A model generated the notes under the pieces. It saw only the letters and a list, made by a program, of their open reading frames with translations, was not told where the DNA came from and did not search any database. Below, piece by piece: positions 3,128-63,582 of a DNA stretch of 64,000 bases; the stretch's first letter is position 1, and each line of letters opens with the position of its first letter. The stretch lies in the sequence record OZ035744.1, one strand, 5' to 3'. The position numbers and the translations under genes are program-made. Source of the DNA: Felixounavirus LF110P1.

Positions 3128-3643
3128 CTATTTAACCTCAAAAACTGGTTCAAGAACCAATATAAAGTCTACACAGTCATCTTCTTCATCCAGAATACCA
3201 TCAAAGTTCTTAGGTACAAAGTCGAAGAGGCTCATAGAATATCGGTCAGAAGTAACCCTGATAGTGTTCCCTATATTCTCTACAGTTAATATTGTACGGC
3301 TTTCTGTTACCTCACTTAGAAGATTACTCACAAAGTCATCTAAGAAGTGTTTCATCAGTGACTTGAAGCCTTTAGGGTAATCTGTACCAGAGTATGTTTC
3401 AATCTGAGGAACAAGCTTAACATTTATACTAGTCTTTGTTAAGAACGTTTTAGAGAACATGCTATCAGGTAGCTTACAAACAGTCTTTCCAGTACCTTCA
3501 TGTTCAATCTCAACAAAACCAGCTTCGTCGCCACATGTAACTATTTTAAAAGATGCTTCATTCTCATACTGTGAAGCCATAAACTTTTTAAGCATTTCTT
3601 TAAGGAAATCTGCATGAGCATCTTGTAAGTAGATATCAATCAT
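3128..3643 (-). CDS. hypothetical protein
   Basis: 171 aa ORF, tightly packed in minus-strand operon. Confidence 0.4.
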   Translation of the reverse strand: MIDIYLQDAHADFLKEMLKKFMASQYENEASFKIVTCGDEAGFVEIEHEGTGKTVCKLPDSMFSKTFLTKTSINVKLVPQIETYSGTDYPKGFKSLMKHFLDDFVSNLLSEVTESRTILTVENIGNTIRVTSDRYSMSLFDFVPKNFDGILDEEDDCVDFILVLEPVFEVK

Positions 3644-3656
3644 AGTTAATCACCTA

Positions 3657-4016
3657 TTATGGGAACAAGCACTTAATGTCATCGTTTTTGAAAACAAAAC
3701 TTGTGTAGTTGTGACCATCAACATCCAACCAAACAGCCTGAACATCCACACCATCAAGATTGTGGTAAAGTTCTTTGATGAAGTGGTCTTTCACAATCTG
3801 ACTGCTAGTTGTTTCCAGCTTAATGTTCGAGATTGCTGAACCTACAGCCATATAGCCCATGACACGTTTCTTTTCAGTATGCTTAATCTTACCATCTTTG
3901 TAAGCCATAATGAGACTGGAAAGAATCTTCACACCGTAATACTTTTCAAGGTGAGTAGGTACACCATAAAAGCCTAATGCGAAGTTTTCAGAGTGGATAA
4001 TGTTTTCACGTTTCAT
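3657..4016 (-). CDS. hypothetical protein
   Basis: 119 aa ORF. Confidence 0.4.
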   Translation of the reverse strand: MKRENIIHSENFALGFYGVPTHLEKYYGVKILSSLIMAYKDGKIKHTEKKRVMGYMAVGSAISNIKLETTSSQIVKDHFIKELYHNLDGVDVQAVWLDVDGHNYTSFVFKNDDIKCLFP

Positions 4017-8273: not shown

Positions 8274-10944
8274 CCTTACCTGTGCCAGTTACAAGTGTCT
8301 CACTCTTCAAACCTAAATTCTTAGATGCCTGACCATACATCCAGTCAGTTATGGCTTTAACTTCTTGAGTCATACTTTCTGGGCATTCCCAACTGTTTTC
8401 ATCGTGGTATGCCAGCAAAAGCCTAGCACCAATTGCTGGTTTTCGTCCATTTAATTTTGTCAGTCCTTCTTCACATGCTCTTCTACAAGCAAGGTTAATT
8501 GCCTCATTTTGAATCTGAGCCTCCGAACCCATAAGCAAATAATTCAATAACTTATGTGGAGATTTGCACCACAACCAAGCTCCAGCAACTTTTACAAAGC
8601 CCCCTTTAGAGATTGCAGCAGTCTTACCAAATACCTCTTCAAGTGCCTTTTTAGTTGCTTTGTAGTCAGCTTCCAAGTCATCTAGCAGCTTTTTAATTTT
8701 AGGCAAACGAATAAAGTAAGTCTGTTTAGTCAGCGCACCTTCCTGAGTAGTTGCAGCCTTAATCGTCTTAGCAAACTTCTCATCACCTGCACCGAACAGC
8801 AGTGCATAGATACCATTCTTAGCTTTCTTACGACCCTTGCTAATCTCATGAAGAAGATTCTCATCCTGAGTAGCTCGACAAGTCAAGATGTCCTGCTCAT
8901 CGTTCAAGTTAAAGTAAATACTGTTCAGTGTATGTGCATCAGTCCCTGAATAGACAACGTACAGGTCATTCTCAGAGTCATAGCGAAGGTACTTATCAAT
9001 CTCTGGGTTGAGGTACTCATCAAAGTGTTTACAGTAATAGCGTCCATCTTCTTGACGAATGAACTCAATTTCTTCTTTACCTTGCGTTACCGCTTTGGTG
9101 AAGTCTTTATCACCCATAAAGTTACAAAGAAGAACTAGCTGGGCTGAGTTCATATCTACAGAGACAACGTTAGTACCTTCCTCACAAATCCACACTGCCC
9201 TCATTGGTTCCCCATAGACAGCAGCACCAGATGGTACGTTTACAATACCATACTGTGTCATACGTCCAGTTGAAGTACCAAACACCATTGCACCAGCACT
9301 AAGGCGACCATCAGGACGAATCTGGTTCAACCAACCTTTTTCATCATCCTTTGAGTTCTCAATAGTTCTGCGTCGGTGCATCAAAGTGTAGTATTTAGCA
9401 ATCTTCTGTCCAAGCTCACCTTCAATCGTATCGTAAGATGATTCAGTAAGTTTTGGTGAAGTACGGATTAAGCAAGGCTCAAGCAAATCTGTGTACTTCT
9501 TCACAGACCAGTTATGCTCAATGTACTGGACGCCTTCGTGTTCAACATAACTCAAACCACACCGCTCAACCATTTCCTGCCACTTAGGATGCTTTGTAAT
9601 CATCTTTTTATTGTCTTTGAAACGACAAACTTTGACAGGGCGACCATCAGAGTCTTTCTTGTAGTTCCAGTCATCTGGAATCCAACCAACTGATTTCAAG
9701 TAGTCTTTAACAACTGCTACCTGAGTCATACGAGAAACTTCAAACTCAATTGGTGTATATGGTGCATCAATCAAACCTGTGTAGCGACTTGACTCAAGTT
9801 CAAAGTGGTTAACAACGTGGCTGTTATAGTACTTCACAGTTTTGACTGTTTTTACTGGCTTCCAGTCTTTGCATTTCTTGCCAATCTTTGCGTTCAACTC
9901 ATTGCAAATTGCACGAGCATCCTTCATTGCTACAAAGCCTTCCTTGTACTCTTCACCAGTTACAGTGTTGGTTGGTGTATAGCAATTCCTTTTTTCAATG
10001 TTAAAAATCTTTGTAGTTGGCTTACCAAATGGTTTGATTTCGTATGTCTGCATCTCGCCATTACGTACCTGCTGACGATACTTTGTCTTAGGGTACTTGG
10101 TAATTCTTTTCAGTCCATCTGCATGACCAAATGTTTCAACATACTCATTCCAAGCTTTTGCAAACTCTTCTCCAGTGACTTTACCTTTGGTCTTAATAGT
10201 TGGAGGTAGATGTGGTTCAACCTCTGAAGCAAGCTCATTAGTCAACTTGTCAAGTTCCTTTACATGGAACTCCATAAGCTCTTTATCAGCTTTCCAACCA
10301 TTGATAGCTTGTTGACTCATCCAGAAAGATGTTTCTTTAGCTCGCATGTAGGTTTCATAAGTGTCTATGCCACACTTCTTAAGCTTGAGATACTCATTAT
10401 CAAGTGCCCGTTTAGTTTTGGCGTTAATACGGATATCTTCTACAACACGAGTGAAGATTTCTGCATTCCACACACCCCAATGTTCAATCTCTGGTTTACG
10501 AACACCGACACGAGCACCCCATGCAGCCAAACCATGAGCACCTTTATAACCCTTTGGAGTTGGTCTATCCATCCACTGAACACGAGACTGGATAAGAGAA
10601 TCCTGAAAGAAATTACTCCACGGTTTACACTTTGGATTATCAAAGTTCCATAAATCGGGTGCAATGTGATTGAAAACCCACCAGTCATAACCAAGACCAT
10701 TATGAATGCAAAGACGTTTTGCCTTTAACGCAAACTCAATACCTTCACGTAAGCCACCCTTAATGTACTTGGTATACTTGTGACCGAGGATAGGCTCATC
10801 TGTAAAGACCCATACAGGTGGCTCTTCATCGTCAGATTTATAGTCTGCGAAAGCCATTACGTGCACTTTAGTGAACTCAAGGAGTAAACCATCAGTTTCT
10901 GTATCACCAACTAAATGTAAGTTTTTAAAATCTACGTTTTCCAT
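8245..10944 (-). CDS. DNA polymerase, family A, with 3'-5' exonuclease domain
   Basis: exo motif VGDTETDG at N-terminus; motif B-like KNGIYALLFGAG; motif C LLAYHDE; start placed at MENVDF (GAGGGAG RBS) rather than track start 10974. Confidence 0.9.
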   Translation of the reverse strand: MENVDFKNLHLVGDTETDGLLLEFTKVHVMAFADYKSDDEEPPVWVFTDEPILGHKYTKYIKGGLREGIEFALKAKRLCIHNGLGYDWWVFNHIAPDLWNFDNPKCKPWSNFFQDSLIQSRVQWMDRPTPKGYKGAHGLAAWGARVGVRKPEIEHWGVWNAEIFTRVVEDIRINAKTKRALDNEYLKLKKCGIDTYETYMRAKETSFWMSQQAINGWKADKELMEFHVKELDKLTNELASEVEPHLPPTIKTKGKVTGEEFAKAWNEYVETFGHADGLKRITKYPKTKYRQQVRNGEMQTYEIKPFGKPTTKIFNIEKRNCYTPTNTVTGEEYKEGFVAMKDARAICNELNAKIGKKCKDWKPVKTVKTVKYYNSHVVNHFELESSRYTGLIDAPYTPIEFEVSRMTQVAVVKDYLKSVGWIPDDWNYKKDSDGRPVKVCRFKDNKKMITKHPKWQEMVERCGLSYVEHEGVQYIEHNWSVKKYTDLLEPCLIRTSPKLTESSYDTIEGELGQKIAKYYTLMHRRRTIENSKDDEKGWLNQIRPDGRLSAGAMVFGTSTGRMTQYGIVNVPSGAAVYGEPMRAVWICEEGTNVVSVDMNSAQLVLLCNFMGDKDFTKAVTQGKEEIEFIRQEDGRYYCKHFDEYLNPEIDKYLRYDSENDLYVVYSGTDAHTLNSIYFNLNDEQDILTCRATQDENLLHEISKGRKKAKNGIYALLFGAGDEKFAKTIKAATTQEGALTKQTYFIRLPKIKKLLDDLEADYKATKKALEEVFGKTAAISKGGFVKVAGAWLWCKSPHKLLNYLLMGSEAQIQNEAINLACRRACEEGLTKLNGRKPAIGARLLLAYHDENSWECPESMTQEVKAITDWMYGQASKNLGLKSETLVTGTGKVGKSWLEVH

Positions 10945-56337: not shown

Positions 56338-56418
56338 TTTTAAAAGGTGTTGACAGACTCTACAAAGTTGCTCTAAAGTCTGTCACATCAAACAACAAAT
56401 GAGAGAAGAGAGTAAAAT

Positions 56419-57834
56419 ATGAGCGAGTTATTTAAACATGCGCACCTTCATGCAGGTCGAACTGAAAATGGTGCTGTAAACCATACTTCATCAATGTCTG
56501 CTTTAGTAGATTTTTATAAAGCTGCTGGTTCAAGTCGTAGCAATGTAGAAATCTTACCAGACCTTTTCTATAAAGCTTTGCATGAGGATGTTGATGTTGC
56601 AGTTCGTATTTTACTGCATATGCGAGATGTACGAGAAGGTATGGGTGAGCGTAAAGCTTTCCGAACTGTTTTACTTCAAGCGATTGAAGATAAAGTTTTA
56701 GAGCCTACGCAGGTTCTTCGCATTATGGATAAGATTGCAGAACTTGGTCGTTTTGATGACTTCAAAATCTTCGTAGGTACTCGTTTCGAGACAGATGCCT
56801 TCAAACATTTAGAAGCAGCATTACTAGACCCTGCAACAGCAGGTTTGGCGGCTAAGTGGTTACCACGAGTCAAACCACGTCATAAGAAGTTTGTAAAACG
56901 TTTCTGCAAGTTTGCCAACTTGAGTGAGAAAGAGTACCGCACACTGTTGTCTGCACTATCTGATACAGTTGAGCAAAAAATCTCTGCTAATGAGTTTGGT
57001 AAGATTGACTACAGTAAGATTCCTTCACTTGCTGCTGCACGTTACCAAAAACTGTTTAACCGCAAAGATGGAGAACGCTACAAAGCTTACATCGAGTCCT
57101 TATCAAAGGGTGAGACTAAGATTAATGCTGGTGCTGTTTACCCATACGATGTAATTAAATCTGTTAAGCATGGTAATGCAGATGTTGCTAATGAGCAGTG
57201 GAAAGCACTACCAAACTGGATGGCAGAGGGTGAAAACATCTTGTGTATGTCTGATGTTTCAAGCTCAATGTCTTGGGTGAATTTTGGTTCAATTACTGCT
57301 CTTGATATTGGTGTTTCACTTGCATTGTATGTAGCAGAACGTAATACAGGTTGCTTTAAGAATGAGTTGATGGTTTATTCAACAAACCCTCACTTCATCG
57401 AACTGAGTGGTGATTTACGAAACCGTCATCGTCAGGTGATGCGACACGTTGAATATGGCTCAACTAACTTACAAGCAGCTTTTGACCGTATTCTTGAAAC
57501 AGGTAAAAGAAACAACTTGACTCAGAAAGATATGCCAAGTAAGCTTATCATCTTCTCCGATATGGAGTTCAATCAGGTTGATGGAGCTAACGGTCGTACA
57601 AACTTTGAAGCAATTCGTAGTAAGTACAAAAAAGCTGGATACGAAATGCCTCAACTGGTATTCTGGTACTTAGCAAACCGTAATGGTACTTGCGAAGTGT
57701 CTGTTAAGGATAACGGTGTAGCAATGGTATCTGGTTTTTCTCCAGCTACTTTAAAAGCTCTGCTTGGTGGTGAGAAGTTTGACCCAATCAGCGTAATGCT
57801 CAAAGCAGTAATGATTGACCGTTATATCTGGTAA
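56419..57834 (+). CDS. vWA-domain protein with Ro60-like architecture (helical N-terminal domain plus C-terminal von Willebrand A domain)
   Basis: MIDAS motif DVSSS (DxSxS) in ILCMSDVSSSMSW, with later GSTNLQAAF and IIFSDMEF; about 270 aa helical N-terminal region. Confidence 0.55.
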   Translation: MSELFKHAHLHAGRTENGAVNHTSSMSALVDFYKAAGSSRSNVEILPDLFYKALHEDVDVAVRILLHMRDVREGMGERKAFRTVLLQAIEDKVLEPTQVLRIMDKIAELGRFDDFKIFVGTRFETDAFKHLEAALLDPATAGLAAKWLPRVKPRHKKFVKRFCKFANLSEKEYRTLLSALSDTVEQKISANEFGKIDYSKIPSLAAARYQKLFNRKDGERYKAYIESLSKGETKINAGAVYPYDVIKSVKHGNADVANEQWKALPNWMAEGENILCMSDVSSSMSWVNFGSITALDIGVSLALYVAERNTGCFKNELMVYSTNPHFIELSGDLRNRHRQVMRHVEYGSTNLQAAFDRILETGKRNNLTQKDMPSKLIIFSDMEFNQVDGANGRTNFEAIRSKYKKAGYEMPQLVFWYLANRNGTCEVSVKDNGVAMVSGFSPATLKALLGGEKFDPISVMLKAVMIDRYIW

Positions 57835-57852
57835 AAAGTTTTAAAAAGGGTA

Positions 57853-57881
57853 TTGACAATGTGTTTGATACCCTTTAATAT
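57853..57881 (+). promoter_or_regulatory. sigma70-like promoter ahead of tRNA cluster
   Basis: TTGACA - 17 nt - TAATAT. Confidence 0.5.
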
Positions 57882-57999
57882 GTTCTACATAGAAACGAAA
57901 TGAGAGCTTTTCTAAGATACTGAAAAATATTTTAAAAAAGTTCTTGACAACCACTAAAAAATAATGTTAAAGTGGTTACATAGAGTTTGAAAAGTTTAT

Positions 58000-58076
58000 C
58001 TCTGTTTAGCTCAGCTTGGTAGAGCGTTCCGTTTGGGGCGGTAAGGCCGGAGGTTCAAGTCCTCCAACAGAGACCA
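58000..58076 (+). tRNA. tRNA-Pro (anticodon TGG), CCA encoded
   Basis: cloverleaf by hand: acceptor CTCTGTT/AACAGAG, T-arm GGAGG-TTCAAGT-CCTCC, anticodon loop TTTGGGG. Confidence 0.6.
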
Positions 58077-58083
58077 AATTAAT

Positions 58084-58158
58084 GTTCCAGTAGACAAAAT
58101 GGTAAAGTCACCACTCTTTCAAAGTGGATATCTGAGGGTTCAAATCCCTTCTGGAACG
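58084..58158 (+). tRNA. tRNA-Glu (anticodon TTC)
   Basis: acceptor GTTCCAG/CTGGAAC, anticodon stem CCACT/AGTGG, loop CTTTCAA, T-loop GGTTCAAATCC. Confidence 0.6.
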
Positions 58159-58165
58159 CCAGTTT

Positions 58166-58240
58166 TGACAGAAGACCAATTACAGCAAACTTAATCTACT
58201 CATCTGACACGAAATCGGACAAAGAAGATATTTGGTCTGG
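58166..58240 (+). repeat. inter-tRNA repeat copy 1 (CAGAAGACC-N3-TACAGCAA ... GGTCTGG)
   Basis: family of at least four copies between tRNAs (58166, 58335, 58725, 58811); possible fifth at about 61115. Confidence 0.5.
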
Positions 58241-58251
58241 TCATTGAGAAT

Positions 58252-58325
58252 TGCGGGTATAGAGAAAGGGCGTCTCACATGTCTCATTAGCATGGTATCG
58301 GCAGGTTCGACTCCTGCACCCGCCT
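58252..58325 (+). tRNA. tRNA-Met (anticodon CAT), initiator-like 1:72 mismatch
   Basis: T-arm GCAGG-TTCGACT-CCTGC, anticodon loop CTCATTA, D-stem GAGA/TCTC. Confidence 0.6.
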
Positions 58326-58334
58326 CCAATTTTG

Positions 58335-58392
58335 CAGAAGACCGTATTCAGCAACAAAATACTTTTTGCGGATAAAAGAAAAAACACGGTCT
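58335..58392 (+). repeat. inter-tRNA repeat copy 2
   Basis: GCAGAAGACCGTATTCAGCAA...CGGTCTGG. Confidence 0.5.
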
Positions 58393-58405
58393 GGCAATGT
58401 ATTAA

Positions 58406-58479
58406 GGTTAGGAAGCACATAAGGTATGTGCGGTCGCCTGTTAAGCGAATGGCACAGGGTTCGAATCCCTGACTAACCG
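58406..58479 (+). tRNA. tRNA-Asn (anticodon GTT)
   Basis: T-loop GGGTTCGAATCCC, anticodon loop CTGTTAA, acceptor GGTTAGG/ACTAACC. Confidence 0.6.
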
Positions 58480-58491
58480 CCAAATTTAAAT

Positions 58492-58576
58492 GTGTCGTTA
58501 TCCCGTAGATGGTAGCGGTGGGGACTGTAAATCCCTTGTCATTGAGACTCGGTAGGTTCGACTCCTACACGACACA
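58492..58576 (+). tRNA. tRNA-Tyr (anticodon GTA), long variable arm
   Basis: 85 nt; anticodon loop CTGTAAA; T-arm GTAGG-TTCGACT-CCTAC; acceptor GTGTCGT/ACGACAC. Confidence 0.6.
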
Positions 58577-58584
58577 CCAATAAA

Positions 58585-58659
58585 GGTTATGTAGTTTAAT
58601 TTGGTTAAAATACTCCCCTGTCACGGGAGATGATGAGGGTTCAAATCCCTTCGTAACCG
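58585..58659 (+). tRNA. tRNA-Asp (anticodon GTC)
   Basis: anticodon stem CTCCC/GGGAG, loop CTGTCAC; T-loop GGGTTCAAATCCC. Confidence 0.6.
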
Positions 58660-58724
58660 CCAATTTTGAGAGGGCTATTTAGCCCCTCCCTTAAAGAGTT
58701 CTTACGAGTATTCTTTAAAGGAGC

Positions 58725-58797
58725 AGAAGACCAAATACAGCAAGAATGTATGAAATTTCAAGCCAATTTAATTTTGAAAATTTAAAACTTGGTCTGG
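58725..58797 (+). repeat. inter-tRNA repeat copy 3
   Basis: CAGAAGACCAAATACAGCAA...TTGGTCTGG. Confidence 0.5.
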
Positions 58798-58810
58798 CTC
58801 AACAAATTTA

Positions 58811-58942
58811 CAGAAGACCGTTTACAGCAAAACTTAAACAATCTATTTCTCCGGTAAAGAAAAGGCGAAGGTTCGATTCCTTCACTCGGCAGATGTCGAG
58901 TTGGTGTAATGGTAGCACTTAAGATGATAAACAACGGTCTGG
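58811..58942 (+). repeat. inter-tRNA repeat copy 4 (extended, contains tRNA-like T-arm and D-arm fragments)
   Basis: CAGAAGACCGTTTACAGCAA ... GCGAAGGTTCGATTCCTTC ... GTTGGTGTAATGGTAGCAC ... CGGTCTGG. Confidence 0.45.
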
Positions 58943-58943
58943 T

Positions 58944-59086
58944 AATTATCTTTGTAGATAAGTTATTAAGCTTACCTGTGAGTATGCGACCACAAAGGGT
59001 GAAAGGGTAAATTCTAGATTTAAACCCAACAAGGCACATCGCTACAGACCTTAAGCAAGTCTGGGTAGCTTATCTACAAAGATAAT
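58944..59086 (+). ncRNA. candidate structured RNA: 17-bp perfect inverted repeat enclosing about 110 nt
   Basis: TTATCTTTGTAGATAAG (58944) pairs with CTTATCTACAAAGATAA (59069); no ORF; sits between tRNAs. Confidence 0.3.
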
Positions 59087-59091
59087 TTAAT

Positions 59092-59165
59092 GGAAGTGTA
59101 GCAGAATGGTGATGCGGCAGACTTTTAATCTGACAGGCGATGGGTTCGAATCCCTCCACTTCTAC
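59092..59165 (+). tRNA. tRNA-Lys (anticodon TTT)
   Basis: acceptor GGAAGTG/CACTTCT, loop CTTTTAA, T-loop GGGTTCGAATCCC; paralogue of tRNA at 60757. Confidence 0.55.
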
Positions 59166-59172
59166 CAATATG

Positions 59173-59246
59173 GTTCAGTCGCAGATAAGGTAATGCAGGG
59201 GTTTCATAAGCCCTATGAATGTGGGTTCGATTCCCATCTGAACCTC
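59173..59246 (+). tRNA. tRNA-Met or Ile2 (anticodon CAT)
   Basis: acceptor GGTTCAG/CTGAACC (perfect), loop TTCATAA, T-loop GGGTTCGATTCCC. Confidence 0.55.
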
Positions 59247-59251
59247 CAATT

Positions 59252-59323
59252 GTGGGTTAGCATAAATGGTAATGCAAACGGCTGATAACCGTTAGAAGAG
59301 GGTTCGATACCCTCACCTACAAC
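59252..59323 (+). tRNA. tRNA-Ile (anticodon GAT)
   Basis: anticodon stem AACGG/CCGTT, loop CTGATAA; T-arm GAGGG-TTCGATA-CCCTC. Confidence 0.6.
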
Positions 59324-59341
59324 CAATTTCAATAAAGTTGT

Positions 59342-59370
59342 TGACATTGAGATGTGACTACTTTATAGTA
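59342..59370 (+). promoter_or_regulatory. sigma70-like promoter inside tRNA cluster
   Basis: TTGACA - 17 nt - TATAGT. Confidence 0.5.
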
Positions 59371-59661
59371 GATAAAATAATTCATAATATGTATAATTCA
59401 AACACCAATACATGAGCGTTAGACGTAACACAATGTGGGGAAATTTGTTGTACATATTCTGAATAGTTTTCGTTGCGTAGCGTCTATTTTGCAAATTTAA
59501 AATAAATGCAAACGACAATGTTTTTCTGGCAGTAGCTTGATAGGCTAAACACCAGTGAGGTCTTCCAATCCCTCATCAAAGAATTTGGCGTACTAGCCCA
59601 CGGTATGATTAATAAAGTGGGCATCTTTAAGGGCTTTCTAAGAGAGTCTTTAAAGATTAAT

Positions 59662-59735
59662 GCACCCTTAGTTCAATTGGATAGAGCAACGGTCTTCTAA
59701 ATCGTTAGTTACAGGTTCGAATCCTGTAGGGTGTA
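59662..59735 (+). tRNA. tRNA-Arg (anticodon TCT)
   Basis: acceptor GCACCCT/AGGGTGT, D-arm GTTC...GAGC, loop CTTCTAA, T-loop AGGTTCGAATCCT. Confidence 0.6.
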
Positions 59736-59880
59736 CCAATTAGTTAGCAGATTACTTAGACGACCTTAGCGGGTCTTCCTGTAGGGAGGTGGTCTGTATC
59801 TCATGTTTTCCAGAACATGTAAATAATCTGAGAAGGGGCTTTACAGTGTTGAGATAATACGGTAAGCTTCGAATTATAGT

Positions 59881-59960
59881 ATGGGACGATGTTAAGACTC
59901 TAAGGCATGAGCAACGGCTTCCAACACCGTTTCAAAGGGGTTCAACTCCTCCGTCCCATG
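59881..59960 (+). tRNA. tRNA, isotype uncertain (possibly Trp, anticodon CCA), atypical extended D region
   Basis: perfect acceptor ATGGGAC/GTCCCAT, T-loop GGGTTCAACTCC, CCA encoded; D-arm does not fold canonically by hand. Confidence 0.4.
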
Positions 59961-59976
59961 CCAAAGATTGTTTCGG

Positions 59977-60060
59977 AGAGAGTGGCGGTCAACGGAGACC
60001 AACCAGCCTTGAAAACTGGTGCTGCTGGAAACGGTACGGGTTCGACTCCTGCACTCTCTG
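59977..60060 (+). tRNA. tRNA-Ser (anticodon TGA), long variable arm
   Basis: 84 nt; acceptor AGAGAGT/ACTCTCT; D-stem GGTC/GACC; loop CTTGAAA; 16-nt variable region; T-loop TTCGACT; CCA encoded. Confidence 0.5.
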
Positions 60061-60087
60061 CCAAAATGATTTTTTAAGGTGATGATT

Positions 60088-60429
60088 ATGAAGAAAGGTT
60101 CAGTAGGTGAAATTGCTACACAATTAGCTTTCCTCAAAAGAGGTTATGAAGTGTATTCACCAGCTACAGATAATGCAAAGTATGACTTTCTAGTTCACAA
60201 AGATGGTTTGATTGAGACTGTTGAGGTAAAATCAACCTCAGTCAAAAGAGGTGAACTTTGGAGAGTGCAACTGAAAAGAGTTCGTTCTAACAAGAATGAA
60301 AATAGAATAATGAATTTTGATAACTCTCAAGTTGATTACTTAGCTGTTTACATTGAACCACTTGATAAAGTCATCATCTACAAAGCTAAAGATATCAAGT
60401 CTAAGACTGAACTTAGCTTAAAGATTTAA
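60088..60429 (+). CDS. small protein embedded in tRNA cluster (possible PD-(D/E)xK-type nuclease)
   Basis: about 113 aa; D...E-x-K-like arrangement (DFLVHKDGLIETVEVK); RBS AAGGTGA. Confidence 0.3.
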   Translation: MKKGSVGEIATQLAFLKRGYEVYSPATDNAKYDFLVHKDGLIETVEVKSTSVKRGELWRVQLKRVRSNKNENRIMNFDNSQVDYLAVYIEPLDKVIIYKAKDIKSKTELSLKI

Positions 60430-60671
60430 TACTCCGTCCATGCTTGTTCGCATTGTCGGTTTATCCCTCGTGTTGTCGTACACACTGATAAAGCACCTAG
60501 TAGGTGTCACGGAGAAGAGATAGTATCAAGCTCTCCAAAGGTTCTAGTCACCGGATTAAACAAGACTATGCAAAGGCCTTCTTAGGTCTTTTTAGAGGGC
60601 TTCTAAGGTTATTACAGCTTGTTGTGGAACCTTGTTGCTTAGGTTCTTAGAAGTTCTCTAAAAAGATTTAA

Positions 60672-60746
60672 TGGGAGATTGACGGTAATTGGTAAACCTA
60701 CCATCCTTAGAAGTTGGTGTTTGAGGGTTCGAATCCCTTGTCTCCT
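60672..60746 (+). tRNA. tRNA, probably Leu (anticodon TAG), short variable arm
   Basis: acceptor GGGAGAT/GTCTCCT (with G-U), D-loop AATTGGTA, loop CTTAGAA, T-loop GGGTTCGAATCCC. Confidence 0.45.
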
Positions 60747-60756
60747 ACCAAATTAA

Positions 60757-60829
60757 TGCAGGTGTAGCAAAATGGTTATGCGGCTGACTCTTAATCAGTA
60801 AGACGATGGGTTCAATTCCCTCCACCTGT
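60757..60829 (+). tRNA. tRNA-Lys (anticodon CTT)
   Basis: anticodon stem GCTGA/TCAGT, loop CTCTTAA; T-loop GGGTTCAATTCCC. Confidence 0.55.
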
Positions 60830-60838
60830 ACCATACAT

Positions 60839-60911
60839 TGGGGATGTAGTTTACATGGTTAAAACATAAGTTTTGCAAACTTAAGTACAGGGTTCAATTC
60901 CCTGCTTCTCC
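60839..60911 (+). tRNA. tRNA-Ala (anticodon TGC)
   Basis: anticodon stem TAAGT/ACTTA, loop TTTGCAA; T-loop GGGTTCAATTCCC. Confidence 0.6.
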
Positions 60912-60920
60912 ACCAATTAG

Positions 60921-60992
60921 TGCATCCATAGTTTAAACGGGAAAATTACAGTCTTCCAAACTGAGGTTGAGGGTTCGATTCCCTCTGGATGC
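60921..60992 (+). tRNA. tRNA-Gly (anticodon TCC)
   Basis: perfect acceptor GCATCCA/TGGATGC; loop CTTCCAA; T-loop GGGTTCGATTCCC. Confidence 0.6.
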
Positions 60993-61002
60993 TCCAAATT
61001 AA

Positions 61003-61076
61003 TGCTGCTTTCGTATAATTGGCTATTACACATCCCTTGTAAGGATGGAAATGCGGGTTCGAGTCCTGTGAGCAGC
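61003..61076 (+). tRNA. tRNA-Thr (anticodon TGT)
   Basis: anticodon stem CATCC/GGATG, loop CTTGTAA; T-loop GGGTTCGAGTCC. Confidence 0.6.
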
Positions 61077-61080
61077 ACCA

Positions 61081-61172
61081 ATTCAGAGGTCAAGTGAAAG
61101 ACCGCTGGTGTCAACTGAAGACCGTAACAAATTCCACGGAGTTGAGTTAGCGGCACAACTTCAGACCTCTTT
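61081..61172 (+). other. intergenic inverted-repeat element (AGAGGTC ... GACCTCT) containing a GAAGACC motif
   Basis: CAGAGGTCAAGTGAAAGACCGCTGGTGTCAACTGAAGACCG...CAACTTCAGACCTCT; no ORF. Confidence 0.3.
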
Positions 61173-61174
61173 CA

Positions 61175-61246
61175 CACTCGCTTAGTTTATATGGTAAAAC
61201 ATCACCCTTACAAGATGAAGAAAAAGGTTCAAGTCCTTTAGTGAGT
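61175..61246 (+). tRNA. tRNA-Val (anticodon TAC)
   Basis: loop CTTACAA; T-arm AAAGG-TTCAAGT-CCTTT; acceptor ACTCGCT/AGTGAGT. Confidence 0.5.
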
Positions 61247-61250
61247 ACCA

Positions 61251-61325
61251 TGTTCCAGTATCCCAATTGGCAGAGGATGCAAGCTCAAACCTTGTATTAG
61301 TGACGGTTCGAATCCGTCTTGGAAC
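61251..61325 (+). tRNA. tRNA, probably Leu (anticodon CAA), short variable arm
   Basis: acceptor GTTCCAG/TTGGAAC; D-loop AATTGGCAGA; stem GCAAG/CTTGT, loop CTCAAAC; T-arm GACGG-TTCGAAT-CCGTC. Confidence 0.45.
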
Positions 61326-61333
61326 ACCAATTT

Positions 61334-61406
61334 TGCAGGATTAGTTCAAATGGATAGAGCAACAGTCTACGAAGCTGTTAATAGGGGTTCGAATCCCTTA
61401 TCCTGC
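61334..61406 (+). tRNA. tRNA-Arg (anticodon ACG)
   Basis: perfect acceptor GCAGGAT/ATCCTGC; loop CTACGAA; T-loop GGGTTCGAATCCC. Confidence 0.6.
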
Positions 61407-61428
61407 GCCAGATAAAAAAGGTGATACT

Positions 61429-61671
61429 ATGCAAACATTAACAGTAGTTGAACATGAAAACTGTGAGAGTATTGAGTTTGTCAGGGTCATTGGTGTTGAA
61501 CACCACATTTTCTTAAAAGTGGGATACTTATGTGACCCCGCTAGAGTAGAAAGATTTATACGTGATTGTTTTGGTGGTAGACATCTGAAGAGTGTTATTT
61601 TTGAGACAGTTTTACCAGAAGGTTTAGAAACGAATAATAACATTTACCTCCTTACGAGGATTAGACAATGA
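61429..61671 (+). CDS. hypothetical protein (within tRNA cluster)
   Basis: 80 aa ORF with AAAGGTGA RBS. Confidence 0.4.
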   Translation: MQTLTVVEHENCESIEFVRVIGVEHHIFLKVGYLCDPARVERFIRDCFGGRHLKSVIFETVLPEGLETNNNIYLLTRIRQ

Positions 61672-62225
61672 GATACTTAAAGTATGCTTCATGGATTTTC
61701 CTAGCTTTGCTAGAACCATTAGCAGCAACCTTAGCAGTTATCTTAGCACCTTTCGTAGTTCCATTTTACAGTGAGAAGAAAGGCCACTTACCTTTCGGAT
61801 TTAGATGGATGGAGACATATGACAACCCAATTGATGGTGACGAAGGTCATATCGAACGATGGGCTAAGATTAGAAAGATTGGTAAGCTGGGTGTCTACAT
61901 GCAGAGAGTCGGATGGCTCTGGAGAAACAAAGCTTATAACTTCTCTTACCATGTATTAGGAAGAGATGTAAAAGATGTTACTAAGTGGAAAGGTAATATC
62001 AACGTAAGTTCTGACCCTGAAGATAATCAGACAGGTTATCTCCTAATGTGGAACAGTAATGCTTGGGGATTATTCGCTTTTATCCCATCAATTAAAGTCT
62101 TTGGTAAACAGTTTTACTGGAGAATTTATATTGGATGGAAACTAAAAAGTGTTGTCCCAGAAGAAAGAGCATTCTCAAGGGAAAGAGTTATGTTGGCATT
62201 CTTTATTCATCCACTGAGAAAGTAA
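61668..62225 (+). CDS. hypothetical membrane-associated protein (within tRNA cluster)
   Basis: 185 aa; N-terminal hydrophobic helix (WIFLALLEPLAATLAVILAPFVVPF). Confidence 0.45.
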   Translation: MRYLKYASWIFLALLEPLAATLAVILAPFVVPFYSEKKGHLPFGFRWMETYDNPIDGDEGHIERWAKIRKIGKLGVYMQRVGWLWRNKAYNFSYHVLGRDVKDVTKWKGNINVSSDPEDNQTGYLLMWNSNAWGLFAFIPSIKVFGKQFYWRIYIGWKLKSVVPEERAFSRERVMLAFFIHPLRK

Positions 62226-62232
62226 AGATTTA

Positions 62233-62305
62233 AAGGGGATTAGTTTACAAGGTTAAAACCTCGGTCTTTGAAATCGAAGAAGTTGGTTCAATTCCAACAT
62301 CCCCC
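62233..62305 (+). tRNA. tRNA-Gln (anticodon TTG)
   Basis: D-stem GTTT/AAAC; anticodon stem TCGGT/ATCGA, loop CTTTGAA; T-arm GTTGG-TTCAATT-CCAAC. Confidence 0.55.
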
Positions 62306-62310
62306 GCCAA

Positions 62311-62386
62311 TGCTCCATTACTCCAATTGGCAGAGAGGCCAGACTTAAAATCTGTGTTATGTATCGGTTCGAATCCGATATGGAGT
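62311..62386 (+). tRNA. tRNA, probably Leu (anticodon TAA), short variable arm
   Basis: paralogue of tRNA at 61251 (same D-loop AATTGGCAGA); loop CTTAAAA; T-arm ATCGG-TTCGAAT-CCGAT. Confidence 0.45.
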
Positions 62387-62394
62387 ACCAAATT

Positions 62395-62467
62395 TAGCGG
62401 TATAGCATAACTGGCAATGCAACAGTCTCTGAAGCTGTCCTATTAAGGTTCAAATCCTTATGCCGCT
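62395..62467 (+). tRNA. tRNA-Gln (anticodon CTG)
   Basis: acceptor AGCGGTA/TGCCGCT; stem ACAGT/GCTGT, loop CTCTGAA; T-loop AGGTTCAAATCCT. Confidence 0.5.
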
Positions 62468-62502
62468 GCCACTTCTAAGGGTTCTTACGAGAGTCCTTAA
62501 AT

Positions 62503-62574
62503 GTGGCCTTATCATAAATGGTAATGACCCATGCTGTGAACATGGTCTATACGGGTTCAAATCCCGTAGGTCAC
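62503..62574 (+). tRNA. tRNA-His (anticodon GTG)
   Basis: anticodon stem CCATG/CATGG, loop CTGTGAA; T-arm ACGGG-TTCAAAT-CCCGT. Confidence 0.6.
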
Positions 62575-62582
62575 CCCAATTT

Positions 62583-62657
62583 ATAGTCCAAGTAGCTTAT
62601 ATGGTTAAAGCGCGTGTCTGAAAAACATGAGAAGAGGGTTCAAATCCCACTGGACTA
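62583..62657 (+). tRNA. tRNA-Phe (anticodon GAA)
   Basis: perfect acceptor TAGTCCA/TGGACTA; stem CGTGT/ACATG, loop CTGAAAA; T-loop GGGTTCAAATCCC. Confidence 0.55.
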
Positions 62658-62676
62658 CCAATTTCAAAGGTGCTTA

Positions 62677-63411
62677 ATGAAAGAGATGACAGAACAAGGT
62701 AAGGAGATTTTTAATCTCTTAAAAACCGGTAAAGGGTTTTCTAACCCACTTATTACTGGTGCAGCAGTTCTCGGTGGAACCGTAGCTGCTTCTACATCAC
62801 TTGTAAGCTCTATTAGTTCTGTAACAGACCCTACAATGCAGGAGAAACTTGTTGCTGCTGGACTTACAACAGTCCTTCTAAACAGCTTTACAACAAGCCT
62901 TACAAGCACTACAGCAACTACTAAGACCCTGACAGACTACGGTCAAAAATCTATTGATGAGTTTTCATCACGTATGCAGGTAGCAAAGGGATATTCCAAT
63001 GTTATGGGTGCAGCAGGAGAACAAGTTGGTTGTACACCGTTCAGTGGTATTATGGGTGTTGCTACAGAATATGGTCAAAAAGCTATTGATACGATTAACA
63101 GTACACTAGAGAGTGTTAACGATGTATTAAGTTACTTACAAGACGCTATTGACAAGGGTCTTGATACTGTTTCTGATTTAGCTAACCAAGCTGTCAGTAA
63201 GATTAATGAAGGTATCTCAAAGATTACAGCTTATGCAGATGAAGTTGTGCAGATGATTGAAGAAGAAGCTGCCCTTATTGCAGAGTACCTTAAAACGAAT
63301 ATCAATGGGTTCTTAGCAGGTATCTTACCAGACTGGTTTGATGATGCCTGTAAAACTGGTGTAATTGACACTATTGCAACACCAGAAATGAAGAACGCAT
63401 TACAGAAATAA
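62677..63411 (+). CDS. Ser/Thr-rich hypothetical protein
   Basis: track ORF 62614-63411 begins inside tRNA-Phe; more likely start is the internal ATG (MKEMTEQ) after AAAGGTG. Confidence 0.45.
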   Translation: MKEMTEQGKEIFNLLKTGKGFSNPLITGAAVLGGTVAASTSLVSSISSVTDPTMQEKLVAAGLTTVLLNSFTTSLTSTTATTKTLTDYGQKSIDEFSSRMQVAKGYSNVMGAAGEQVGCTPFSGIMGVATEYGQKAIDTINSTLESVNDVLSYLQDAIDKGLDTVSDLANQAVSKINEGISKITAYADEVVQMIEEEAALIAEYLKTNINGFLAGILPDWFDDACKTGVIDTIATPEMKNALQK

Positions 63412-63430
63412 TGGAAGATTAACCCTAAAA

Positions 63431-63505
63431 GGTAAGGGAGCAGTTTGCTAAACTGCCAGTAGCTGAGAAATCGGTGTGCCAGTTCAAGTCTGGTATCTTC
63501 CTCCA
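63431..63505 (+). other. tRNA-like element (T-arm plus CCA end, non-canonical 5' half)
   Basis: T-arm GCCAG-TTCAAGT-CTGGT and 3' ATCTTCC-T-CCA, but upstream forms a 7-bp hairpin GCAGTTT/AAACTGC instead of D and anticodon arms. Confidence 0.3.
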
Positions 63506-63509
63506 ATTT

Positions 63510-63582
63510 GAATCCGTGACAGAAATGGCTATGTGCCTGTCTGCAAAACAGGTTTATAAGGGTTCGAGTCCCTTCGGATTCT
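63510..63582 (+). tRNA. tRNA-Cys (anticodon GCA)
   Basis: perfect acceptor GAATCCG/CGGATTC; stem CCTGT/ACAGG, loop CTGCAAA; T-loop GGGTTCGAGTCCC. Confidence 0.6.

Follow-up and report, generated by a model that had tools for sequence, protein, structure and literature searches.

A gene for a predicted Ro60-fold protein and a strand-linked family of candidate Y-RNA-like small RNAs in a Felixounavirus tRNA array

The Ro60-like gene upstream of the tRNA array

We analyzed a 64,000-nt stretch of the genome of Felixounavirus LF110P1 (OZ035744.1; hereafter, the window), a Felix O1-like myovirus, concentrating on the gene of a 471-amino-acid (aa) protein with a Ro60-like predicted fold and on the structured elements that lie among the transfer RNA (tRNA) genes downstream of it. 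The region was 99% identical to Escherichia phage vB_EcoM_ASO1A. The gene (56419–57834, + strand) was preceded by a sigma-70-like promoter (56350–56379, + strand; TTGACA-18-TAAAGT, 10 of 12 consensus positions) and followed on the same strand by an array of 26 tRNA genes (58000–63585). Two further sigma-70-like promoters were located before this array of tRNAs and small RNAs (57853–57881 and 57944–57973, + strand). All three promoters are putative and were called by consensus match.

The protein was assigned to two Pfam families, DUF2828 (PF11443) over its N-terminal part (E = 1e-29) and DUF7788 (PF25043) over its von Willebrand factor A (vWA) part (E = 3e-43), with scores of 103.8 and 148 bits against gathering cut-offs of 29 and 27.1, respectively. 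It also matched PHROG 850 (“RNA-binding protein”) from end to end (E = 1e-183). The residues of the MIDAS (metal-ion-dependent adhesion site), D279-V-S281-S-S283, T349, and D381, were invariant across 26 homologues, down to 43% identity. An earlier reading of the letters of the window without database searches (hereafter, the first-pass annotation) had described a 471-aa open reading frame (ORF) with a helical N-terminal region and a C-terminal vWA domain carrying a complete MIDAS, and all of this was confirmed.

An AlphaFold model based on an alignment of 26 sequences was confident, with a predicted local distance difference test (pLDDT) score of 84.9 and a predicted template modelling (pTM) score of 0.86. 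When this model was compared to the Protein Data Bank (PDB) with Foldseek, the top 11 matches were all full-length Ro60/TROVE structures (human, Xenopus, Deinococcus Rsr, and Thermus phage phiLo). In the predicted model, a ring of helical repeats is followed by the vWA domain, and the overall fold of Ro60 is matched along the full length. Judging by the model, the 471-aa protein is Ro60-like in fold but belongs to a sequence family different from TROVE. The Ro60/Rsr architecture proposed by the first-pass annotation thus holds for the predicted fold but not for the sequence, where DUF2828 and DUF7788 stand in place of any TROVE similarity.

Homologues of the protein were numerous (2553 matches among the candidates scored) and were found in 709 of 50,697 phage records, including phages of Escherichia, Salmonella, Vibrio, Aeromonas, Campylobacter, Listeria, Staphylococcus, Enterococcus, Bacillus, and Mycobacterium. 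The mycobacteriophage homologues are annotated as “Ro-like RNA binding protein”. The DUF2828/DUF7788 family is also present in giant viruses of protists and is known in eukaryotes (Pfam family, plant literature).

The orthologue in Escherichia phage Bas63, gp130 (bas63_0130), was 98% identical to the 471-aa protein and occupied the same position upstream of tRNA-Pro. Deletion of g130 sensitizes Bas63 to the Ppl defense, and gp130 by itself, whether supplied on a plasmid or by T7, acts against Ppl and rescues T7 on it (10.1101/2024.10.10.617714). The same 2024 preprint, which describes PhageMaP, called gp130 Ro60-like and guessed that some of the annotated tRNAs might be Y RNAs (10.1101/2024.10.10.617714). 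The Ro60-like nature of the protein was therefore already known.

Structured units between the tRNA genes

The motif pair CAGAAGACC...GGTCTGG occurred three times at a spacing of 40–70 nt, against 0 expected, and a fourth pair of this type (58811–58942) surrounded a tRNA-like module. Together, four paralogous units, U1–U4, were delineated within 58166–58945. They lie on the + strand, 332–1111 nt past the stop codon of the Ro60-like gene, which agrees with the same-strand location within about 4 kb that characterizes YrlA RNAs; the promoter pair and two tRNAs intervene between the gene and U1. The first-pass annotation had implied a single Y-RNA-like partner. Its partner reading was retained, while the number rose to four, with the tRNA-like pieces forming the core of one of them.

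Each unit carries the same signature: a covarying closing helix that starts from 5'-AAG..., then UUACAGCAA, and a 3' end that reads ...CUG-3'. The common terminal fold consists of an outer 4-bp helix, a small internal loop, and the helix AGACCNN/NNGGUCU. U1 (58166–58243, + strand) is located in the gap between tRNA-Glu and tRNA-Met and has the outer pairs UGAC/GUCA and the core AAGACCAA-UUACAGCAA...UUGGUCUG. U2 (58332–58397, + strand), in the gap between tRNA-Met and tRNA-Asn, has the outer pairs UUGC/GCAA and the core AAGACCGU-AUUCAGCAA...ACGGUCUG. U3 (58721–58800, + strand) has the outer pairs GAGC/GCUC. These three small units, of which U1 can be described as Y-like or Class-I-like, were defined by pattern and fold. 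U4 (58808–58945, + strand) is larger and YrlA-like; its closing helix (UUAC/GUAA, AGACCGUU/AACGGUCU) and motif region (UACAGCAA) enclose a permuted tRNA-like domain. In all four units, (U/A)U(A/U)CAGCAA is found directly 3' of the 5' helix strand, as UUACAGCAA in U1 and U4, AUUCAGCAA in U2, and AUACAGCAA in U3.

The outer pairs differ between the units but remain complementary, and so do the pairs of the inner helix, which fixes the pairing register. An alternative register with GGUCUGG on the 5' side and CAGAAGACC on the 3' side of tRNA-Met, which would have the polarity of Y RNAs, was rejected, as flanking pairs covary only within units. The core of U2 measures 57 nt, and U1 and U3 measure 69 and 71 nt, respectively. 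U1 and U2 occupy tRNA-sized slots, with 7–9 nt to the ends of the adjoining tRNAs, and could therefore be released by normal tRNA processing.

The tRNA-like module of U4 (58867–58918, + strand) is composed of contiguous pieces: a T arm (GAAGGTTCGATTCCTTC, 58867–58883), a 7-bp acceptor-like hairpin (ACUCGGC/GUCGAGU, 58884–58901; ACTCGGC/GTCGAGT in the DNA), a U8-like UG, and a D arm (GTGTAATGGTAGCAC, 58904–58918). The T-arm-like, acceptor-like, and D-arm-like segments listed by the first-pass annotation are thus all present, and they constitute one module. U4 is predicted to fold into a multi-branch junction with a V-like hairpin, the T arm, the acceptor hairpin, and the D arm. The order of T arm, acceptor hairpin, and D arm corresponds to a tRNA that is open on its anticodon side and has a closed acceptor end, and it is the order described for YrlA, together with a proposed Rsr-contact motif, GNCGAA, near the 5' end (Chen et al. 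2014, PMC4201824). The YrlA layout, T and D stem-loops split by an acceptor-like stem-loop inside a terminal stem, was recovered, with 58867–58918 inside 58808–58945. Nucleotides that form tertiary motifs in tRNAs are kept (T loop UUCGAUU, D loop GG), and the tRNA model gave a partial match of 22–23 bits to the T arm and the 3' strand of the acceptor.

For comparison, we used fetched viral loci with homologues of the protein (numbered with the prefix L), of which 80 from IMG/VR were scanned along with the window; protein identities ranged from 40% to 98%. A strict scan for a T arm, then a hairpin, then a D arm yielded 20 matches, all on the gene strand, against 0 in shuffled sequence. They came from the window, L001–L005, L011, L027, L054, L077, and L078; in addition to the last five of these loci, the YrlA-type layout was recognized in L081 and L083. 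L078, a distant relative with four units, also encodes, within its tRNA array, a phage tRNA with the anticodon CUA (10588–10662; tRNA-Pyl according to ARAGORN), which is of the amber suppressor type.

U4 was conserved in Bas63, in Shigella phage Sf14 (genus Mooglevirus), and in L001–L005. In Sf14, its acceptor hairpin reads ACACG/CGUGU, a compensatory change. The loop of the V-like hairpin differs among Felixounavirus, L001, and Sf14, and therefore no anticodon is under selection there. In some relatives, a discriminator base and CCA are encoded in the loop of the acceptor hairpin, which fits the processing of Mycobacterium smegmatis YrlA by RNase P cutting and the attachment of CCA (PMC4201824). 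MAFFT alignments of the tRNA-like units (A2–A5) were badly registered in the region of the acceptor and D arm, and A6 had a register break. Only small units (hereafter, mini units) were modelled, so the support for U4 comes from pattern, fold, and comparison of orthologues and not from an E-value of its own model.

Downstream, starting at the end of U4, is a long-stem structured element, E5 (58944–59087, + strand). Its arms (58944–58965 and 59066–59087) are 22 nt long, 95% complementary, and 100 nt apart, and its fold z-score (−5.95) was the strongest signal of the region. G-U pairs, read directly from the sequence, lengthen the stem. Between the arms is a mini hairpin (59046–59063), AGACC-UUAAGCAA-GUCU-G, with the Sf14 counterpart AAACC-CUUUAGCAA-GGUUU-G; both the long stem and the mini hairpin retain pairing despite changes in Sf14. 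E5 was matched neither by Rfam nor by R1, our covariance model of the mini units (see below), and it may be a divergent fifth member of the family or a different RNA. The 17-bp perfect inverted repeat noted in the first pass at 58944 and 59069 does exist, but as part of these longer, imperfect arms, and its assignment to the stem of a tRNA-like partner was not upheld, as E5 is an element separate from the tRNA-like RNA. The second region named in the first pass (61080–61170) corresponds to E6, a 95-nt spacer in the gap between tRNA-Thr and tRNA-Val (61081–61175) that contains CUGAAGACC and is 95% identical in Sf14. It is structured (z = −2.96) but was placed in a family by neither Rfam nor R1.

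A reverse-strand ORF (58782–59039) overlaps U3, U4, and E5, and its Bas63 counterparts, bas63_0137 and bas63_0138, are annotated as hypothetical proteins. Such small ORFs are probably spurious calls over non-coding RNA genes. Between tRNA-Asp and U3 (58663–58722) are two hairpins, one GAGGGGCUAAAUAGCCCUCUC-like and one CUUUAAAGAGUUCUUACGAGUAUUCUUUAAAGG, and the whole stretch 58663–58805 had a fold z-score of −3.1. The hairpins may be a terminator or a processing site inside the array. Elsewhere in the array there are three more non-coding gaps of 240–340 nt (59326–59661, 59739–59976, and 60430–60672), one of which includes a near-consensus promoter (59341–59369). Weak sub-threshold matches to tmRNA-type Rfam families were obtained at 59268–59661. 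The array also includes the gene (60079–60429) of a 116-aa PD-(D/E)XK endonuclease (Pfam PDDEXK_5, 3e-17), which may be a homing-type or an RNA/DNA nuclease.

The unit family in relatives and its known counterparts

A common frame was found around the modules at 40–45% protein identity: the closing helix starts with (A/U)G and ends with C(U/A)G, UUUCAGCAA or UUACAGCAA follows the 5' strand, and an A-rich run precedes the 3' strand. A scanner built on this frame detected 145 units on the gene strand of the 81 loci and 24 on the opposite strand, compared to 12–14 in block shuffles. At least one unit was present in 67 of the 81 loci, often 5–35 nt from the gene and also in loci with no tRNA gene. 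The commonest form is a hairpin RNA of 55–61 nt, located on contigs without a tRNA gene, either 5–35 nt past the stop codon or immediately before the gene. In two examples, AGGUUCC-UUACAGCAA...GGAACCUG and UGGUUCC...GGAACCAG, the first pair changes from A-U to U-A, which is compensatory. As these mini hairpin RNAs are the commonest form and occur in loci without tRNAs, the tRNA-like domain appears, from sequence comparison, to be an optional insertion into a simpler conserved RNA.

We assessed covariation in an alignment of 35 distinct mini units with seven helix pairs (A7). Six of the seven pairs change on both sides. Compensatory cells numbered 90, compared to 25.7 in column shuffles, and the covariation score was 0.966 versus 0.207, a value reached by none of 500 shuffles; when the 3' partners were slid by 1–3 columns, the score did not exceed 0.23. 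Two pairs not required by the scanner covary too (A-U 24, U-A 8). The G3-C68 pair and the 3' G were each invariant (35/35), CAGCAA was invariant, UUA was in the majority, and unit length was 51–71 nt. G-U pairs are present in the helices of the relatives. In the mini units of L012, L013, L014, L017, and L025 (e.g., L012:6408–6471), AGCAA recurs two to three times in the variable loop (CAGCAA...AAGCAA...AAGCAA), as if it were an iterated putative protein-binding element.

R1 was built from A7 and used to search both strands of 88 viral loci (945 kb). Of the 119 matches at E ≤ 1, 117 were on the gene strand, and the other two had E > 0.3. At E ≤ 0.01, 63 of the 88 loci contained a match. U1 (34.7 bits, E = 2e-5 over the 945 kb) and U2 (33.2 bits, E = 5e-5) were both outside the seed, of which U3 (32.4 bits) was a member. 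U4, which the scanner also finds, gave a local match of 14.3 bits to its 5' part. An independent test was provided by 80 genome loci from GTDB, where all 64 matches at E ≤ 0.1 were on the gene strand, nearly all of them within a few hundred nt of the gene. Within the window, the 945-kb search of viral loci matched U1, U2, and U3 only.

Units beside the gene were identified in very different phages. There are four in Bas63/JohannRWettstein and four in Sf14. Klebsiella phage FBKp34 has three small units and one tRNA-like unit between the gene and its tRNA array. In Vibrio phage ValKK3 (L084), a single unit of 43–46 nt (3963–4008) overlaps the DUF2828 gene at its start codon (4001), which hints at translational autoregulation in that lineage. 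Three units were found in Staphylococcus phage S-CoN_Ph16 and in Mycobacterium phage Snenia, three upstream of the gene in Listeria phage LP-064 (L085), two in Bacillus phage Tsamsa (L088), and one or more in Campylobacter phage F360. Between the two CAGCAA units upstream of the Tsamsa gene is an apparently structured, GC-richer segment of ~320 nt (3480–3800) with no Rfam match at E ≤ 0.5. By sequence, then, the RNA–protein pairing seems to recur across these phages.

The closest known counterparts are the Rsr–YrlA/YrlB systems of bacteria and mycobacteriophages. As in the window, a ring-plus-vWA gene is found there within 1–4 kb of several small RNAs on the same strand; one RNA combines a tRNA-like domain (V, T arm, acceptor-like hairpin, D arm) with a terminal stem, and the smaller partner RNAs are without that domain. 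The window differs in that its protein is not TROVE, its RNA is missed by RF02553 and RF00019, its signature is AAG-helix / UUACAGCAA / CUG instead of a 5' GNCGAA, and its units are interleaved with true tRNAs. Against Rfam YrlA, the tRNA-like units of relatives scored 24.7–39.6 bits, with E-values down to 5e-6, all below threshold. Snenia, a cluster E mycobacteriophage, links the two: its “Ro-like” gp54 is a DUF2828+DUF7788 protein, three units with ACAGCAA lie downstream, and the middle one matched RF02553 with 39.3 bits (E = 4.6e-6; threshold, 69).

Y-like RNAs beside a TROVE-type Ro60 were previously known in mycobacteriophages and in Thermus phage phiLo. In phiLo, Yrl1 and Yrl2 are adjacent to the Ro60 gene, and Ro60 binds in vitro and forms a ternary complex with the host PNPase (PMC12135203; PDB 9l5y). 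The combination of a phage Ro60-fold protein with adjacent Y-like RNAs, two in phiLo, is shared with the window, but the phiLo protein has a TROVE domain and its RNAs have CGAA in a bulge and no CAGCAA module.

For Bas63, the preprint pointed at annotated tRNAs; it did not identify the RNAs and reported no RNA motif or family-wide linkage. Our candidates are located in unannotated gaps (82073–82139, 82240–82297, 82695–82762, and 82782–82907), partly under bas63_0137 and bas63_0138. In a 2025 paper on Listeria phage CKA15, three abundant transcripts upstream of the homologue were proposed to be Y RNAs. We considered whether these were our units and rejected the match, as the most abundant region (CKA15_059–061) coincides in position with a ROOL RNA match (RF03087; 87.4 bits, E = 1.6e-16, just below threshold) at 2429–2980 of LP-064, ~1 kb upstream of the Ro-like gene; unit expression is therefore not yet confirmed by the CKA15 data. 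The LP-064 units are 74–335 nt upstream of the gene, and an RtcB ligase is encoded 1.3 kb downstream of it, recalling the bacterial rsr-yrlBA-rtcBA operon. Purified CKA15 virions contained the homologue, CKA15_055 (57% sequence coverage; PMC12282133), so the Ro60-like protein may be packaged and delivered with the genome.

Permuted and split tRNA genes exist, for example, in Cyanidioschyzon merolae. They share with U4 an order in which the T arm and acceptor 3' strand (the 3' half) come before the acceptor 5' strand and D arm (the 5' half). They differ in that U4 has no anticodon arm under selection and cannot give rise to a decoding tRNA, as the helix with CAGCAA closes its break point.

Among non-tRNA Rfam families, only RF01414, the Dictyostelium Class I RNAs, picked up the small units. 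U2 scored 24 bits, the best non-tRNA match of the region, U4 12.8 bits, and L012:6410–6470 28.9 bits, the latter being the sole match to a unit when 56 kb were searched with 4227 families; all of these scores are below the gathering threshold of 41.5 bits. Class I RNAs are 42–65 nt long and have a 5' AAG and a terminal helix of 6 bp in which structure, not sequence, is conserved (Kjellin et al. 2021, PMC7919456). They possess an 11-nt motif, CCUUACAGCAA, with near-invariant U3, C6, C9, A10, and A11, and end in a 3' CUGU, the C of which forms a pair with the invariant 5' G; they have been reported as unique to dictyostelids (PMC7919456). The R1 consensus, aAGGaUgcUUACAGCAA...gcAuCCUGu, agrees with this description point for point. 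The phage units (51–71 nt) likewise have a 5' AAG whose invariant G pairs with the C of a 3' CUG(U), a short structure-only helix, CCUUACAGCAA directly 3' of the 5' strand with all five near-invariant nucleotides matched, and an A-rich variable interior. Class I RNAs differ in being encoded by eukaryotic genes, probably transcribed by Pol III from a DUSE promoter, and in having the RRM protein Rnp1A as their known direct binder, whereas the source here is a Felixounavirus. We found no link in the literature between Class I RNAs and a DUF2828 protein, Ro60, or Y RNAs, and a literature search for the motif string of the units returned primers only.

A Ro60-fold protein and its candidate RNA partners

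We consider it likely that the 471-aa protein is a Ro60-fold RNA-binding ring of the DUF2828/DUF7788 type, distinct from TROVE, and that its cognate small RNAs, corresponding to Y RNAs, are U1–U4 and perhaps also E5. The general proposal of the first-pass annotation, a Ro60-like protein with possible Y-RNA-like partners near the tRNAs, is supported in this form by the predicted fold and by the strand-linked family of units. As membership in TROVE, RF02553, and RF01414 fails on sequence or score, we regard the locus as a variant of the Ro60–Y RNA kind.

Under this reading, the early-type promoters at 57853 and 57944 would drive joint transcription of the tRNAs and the units, and the tRNA-processing machinery would free the latter. 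The protein-binding site would be the invariant module, i.e., the terminal helix from its G-C pair, the single-stranded UUACAGCAA by the 5' strand, and the 3' CUG. The variable interior would be the effector side, and in U4 it would mimic a tRNA in circularly permuted form, with an acceptor hairpin of 7 bp. As with bacterial YrlA, this mimic could be recognized by tRNA enzymes (RNase P, CCA-adding enzyme, TruB/Dus) or by a host exoribonuclease. The resulting ribonucleoprotein (RNP) may adjust RNA turnover, quality control, or repair in infection. The defense-countering activity of the protein, known for the Bas63 orthologue against Ppl, would be separate and would need no phage RNAs.

Several results weigh against this interpretation. 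The protein had no TROVE (PF05731) match in Pfam at E ≤ 1, Ro60 was not retrieved from all PDB chains by phmmer or by a 26-sequence profile, and an NCBIfam search of the protein gave no route to Ro60. None of the units reached an Rfam gathering threshold. The first-pass annotation had suggested YrlA and Y RNA models as a means of recognizing the RNAs; Y_RNA and YrlA had no match in the window even at E ≤ 10, and for YrlA (RF02553; gathering threshold, 69 bits) the same was true of a 171-nt segment of window RNA. The YrlA 5' motif, GNCGAAN0-1G, does not occur at the 5' end of the units, which reads CAGAAGACCGUUUACAGCAA; the only instance, GGCGAAG at 58863–58869, overlaps the T stem and is missing from distant relatives. 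The conserved GGUCUG is on the 3' strand in the units versus the 5' strand in Y RNAs, and one detail of the U4 fold, the inner helix CUUAA/UUAAG, is lost in Sf14. R1 had no match at E ≤ 0.01 in 25 of the 88 viral loci and 46 of the 80 genome loci, some of which are truncated or have larger units that the mini model does not see. The percentage of paired cells has an upward bias, as the scanner required five of the A7 pairs. The activity of gp130 against Ppl without a phage-encoded RNA means that at least one function is independent of the RNAs. Finally, unit expression, processing, protein binding, and function are what we infer from the observed motif, covariation, and strand-specific genomic linkage and from the predicted fold.

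The units could also be cis-acting, as autoregulatory operators in the untranslated regions of the gene's own mRNA or as processing or spacer signals of tRNA precursors, with protein binding being optional. Such a role would suit the proximity of a unit to the stop or start codon in most loci (within tens of nt), the overlap with the start codon in ValKK3, and the placement of the window units exactly between tRNAs. We nevertheless regard it as unlikely, given the promoter pair and two tRNAs between the gene and U1, the tandem arrangement of units in 3–5 copies, and the many host loci that have no tRNAs to process. Moreover, the nearest Rfam families are stable small RNAs, and complete tRNA-like domains with an encoded CCA, as in some units, make sense only for a processed stable RNA. 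Far less probable is that the tRNA-like segments are decaying tRNA pseudogenes, flanked by repeats that are chance or functionless duplication remnants. Duplication and decay would be expected in a dense tRNA array, the tRNA model did match the 3' half of the module in part, and Rfam thresholds were reached by no family. Yet the permuted, YrlA-like arm order is found again in unrelated phages, where the sequences differ and pairing is intact, and never in shuffles; the closing helix and CAGCAA motif recur in tRNA-free loci with strong covariation and strand biases of 117:2 and 64:0; and U4 is near identical among Felixounavirus genomes and shows a compensatory change at genus distance, in Sf14, which is not random drift.

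A protein that inhibits a host defense on its own, e.g., with its vWA/MIDAS face against Ppl, would make the RNAs an independent small-RNA family sharing an early-expressed neighborhood. The plasmid and T7 experiments with gp130 fit this explanation, as do the nature of vWA/MIDAS domains as protein-interaction modules and the presence of CKA15_055 in Listeria phage virions. It does not account for a linkage that spans phages of Proteobacteria, Firmicutes, Actinobacteria, and Campylobacter with otherwise different neighbors, in which gene and units are always on one strand and mostly right next to each other; moreover, RNAs of just this stem-plus-tRNA-like kind are the known partners of the RNA-binding ring that the Ro60 fold forms. 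We assign this explanation a similarly low probability to that of a cis-acting role. The least credible alternative, in our judgment, is that the repeats act as DNA, whether as iterons bound by a protein, as sites of recombination or homing, or as miniature mobile elements. The near-perfect inverted repeat of E5 and the four unit copies within 800 bp might be taken in that sense, but the motif is extremely asymmetric between strands, the helices vary freely in sequence while pairing is kept, G-U pairs occur in the helices of relatives and in the extension of the E5 stem, and the nucleotides of tRNA-like tertiary motifs are preserved.

The likely pairing of a Ro60-fold ring with these RNAs has several consequences. 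For Bas63 gp130, which has a known Ppl phenotype, candidates for the RNA partner now come with coordinates where the published guess was annotated tRNAs, and expression, processing, binding, and role could be tested directly in the Bas63 system. More broadly, the units make up an unannotated phage small-RNA family with strong covariation and a tight link to a protein family of thousands; it is missing from Rfam, and spurious small ORFs are often annotated over its members. The partnership between a Ro60-fold ring and an RNA made of a stem and a tRNA mimic would reach past TROVE and past GNCGAA, which is useful for understanding RNP recognition.

It is also possible, though we put this forward tentatively, that the AAG-helix / UUACAGCAA / CUG RNA is the universal ligand of DUF2828/DUF7788 Ro60-fold proteins and that Class I RNAs represent this RNP system in eukaryotes. 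Four proteins have been pulled down with DdR-21 (a Class I RNA), including DDB_G0281243 of unknown function, which would be a candidate partner. If true, there would be a second, ancient Ro–Y-like RNP across phages, giant viruses, and eukaryotes, in which phage RNAs repeatedly gained tRNA-like effector domains. If the resemblance does reflect a shared protein partner, a 20-year-old question about an abundant class of eukaryotic non-coding RNAs would become directly testable.

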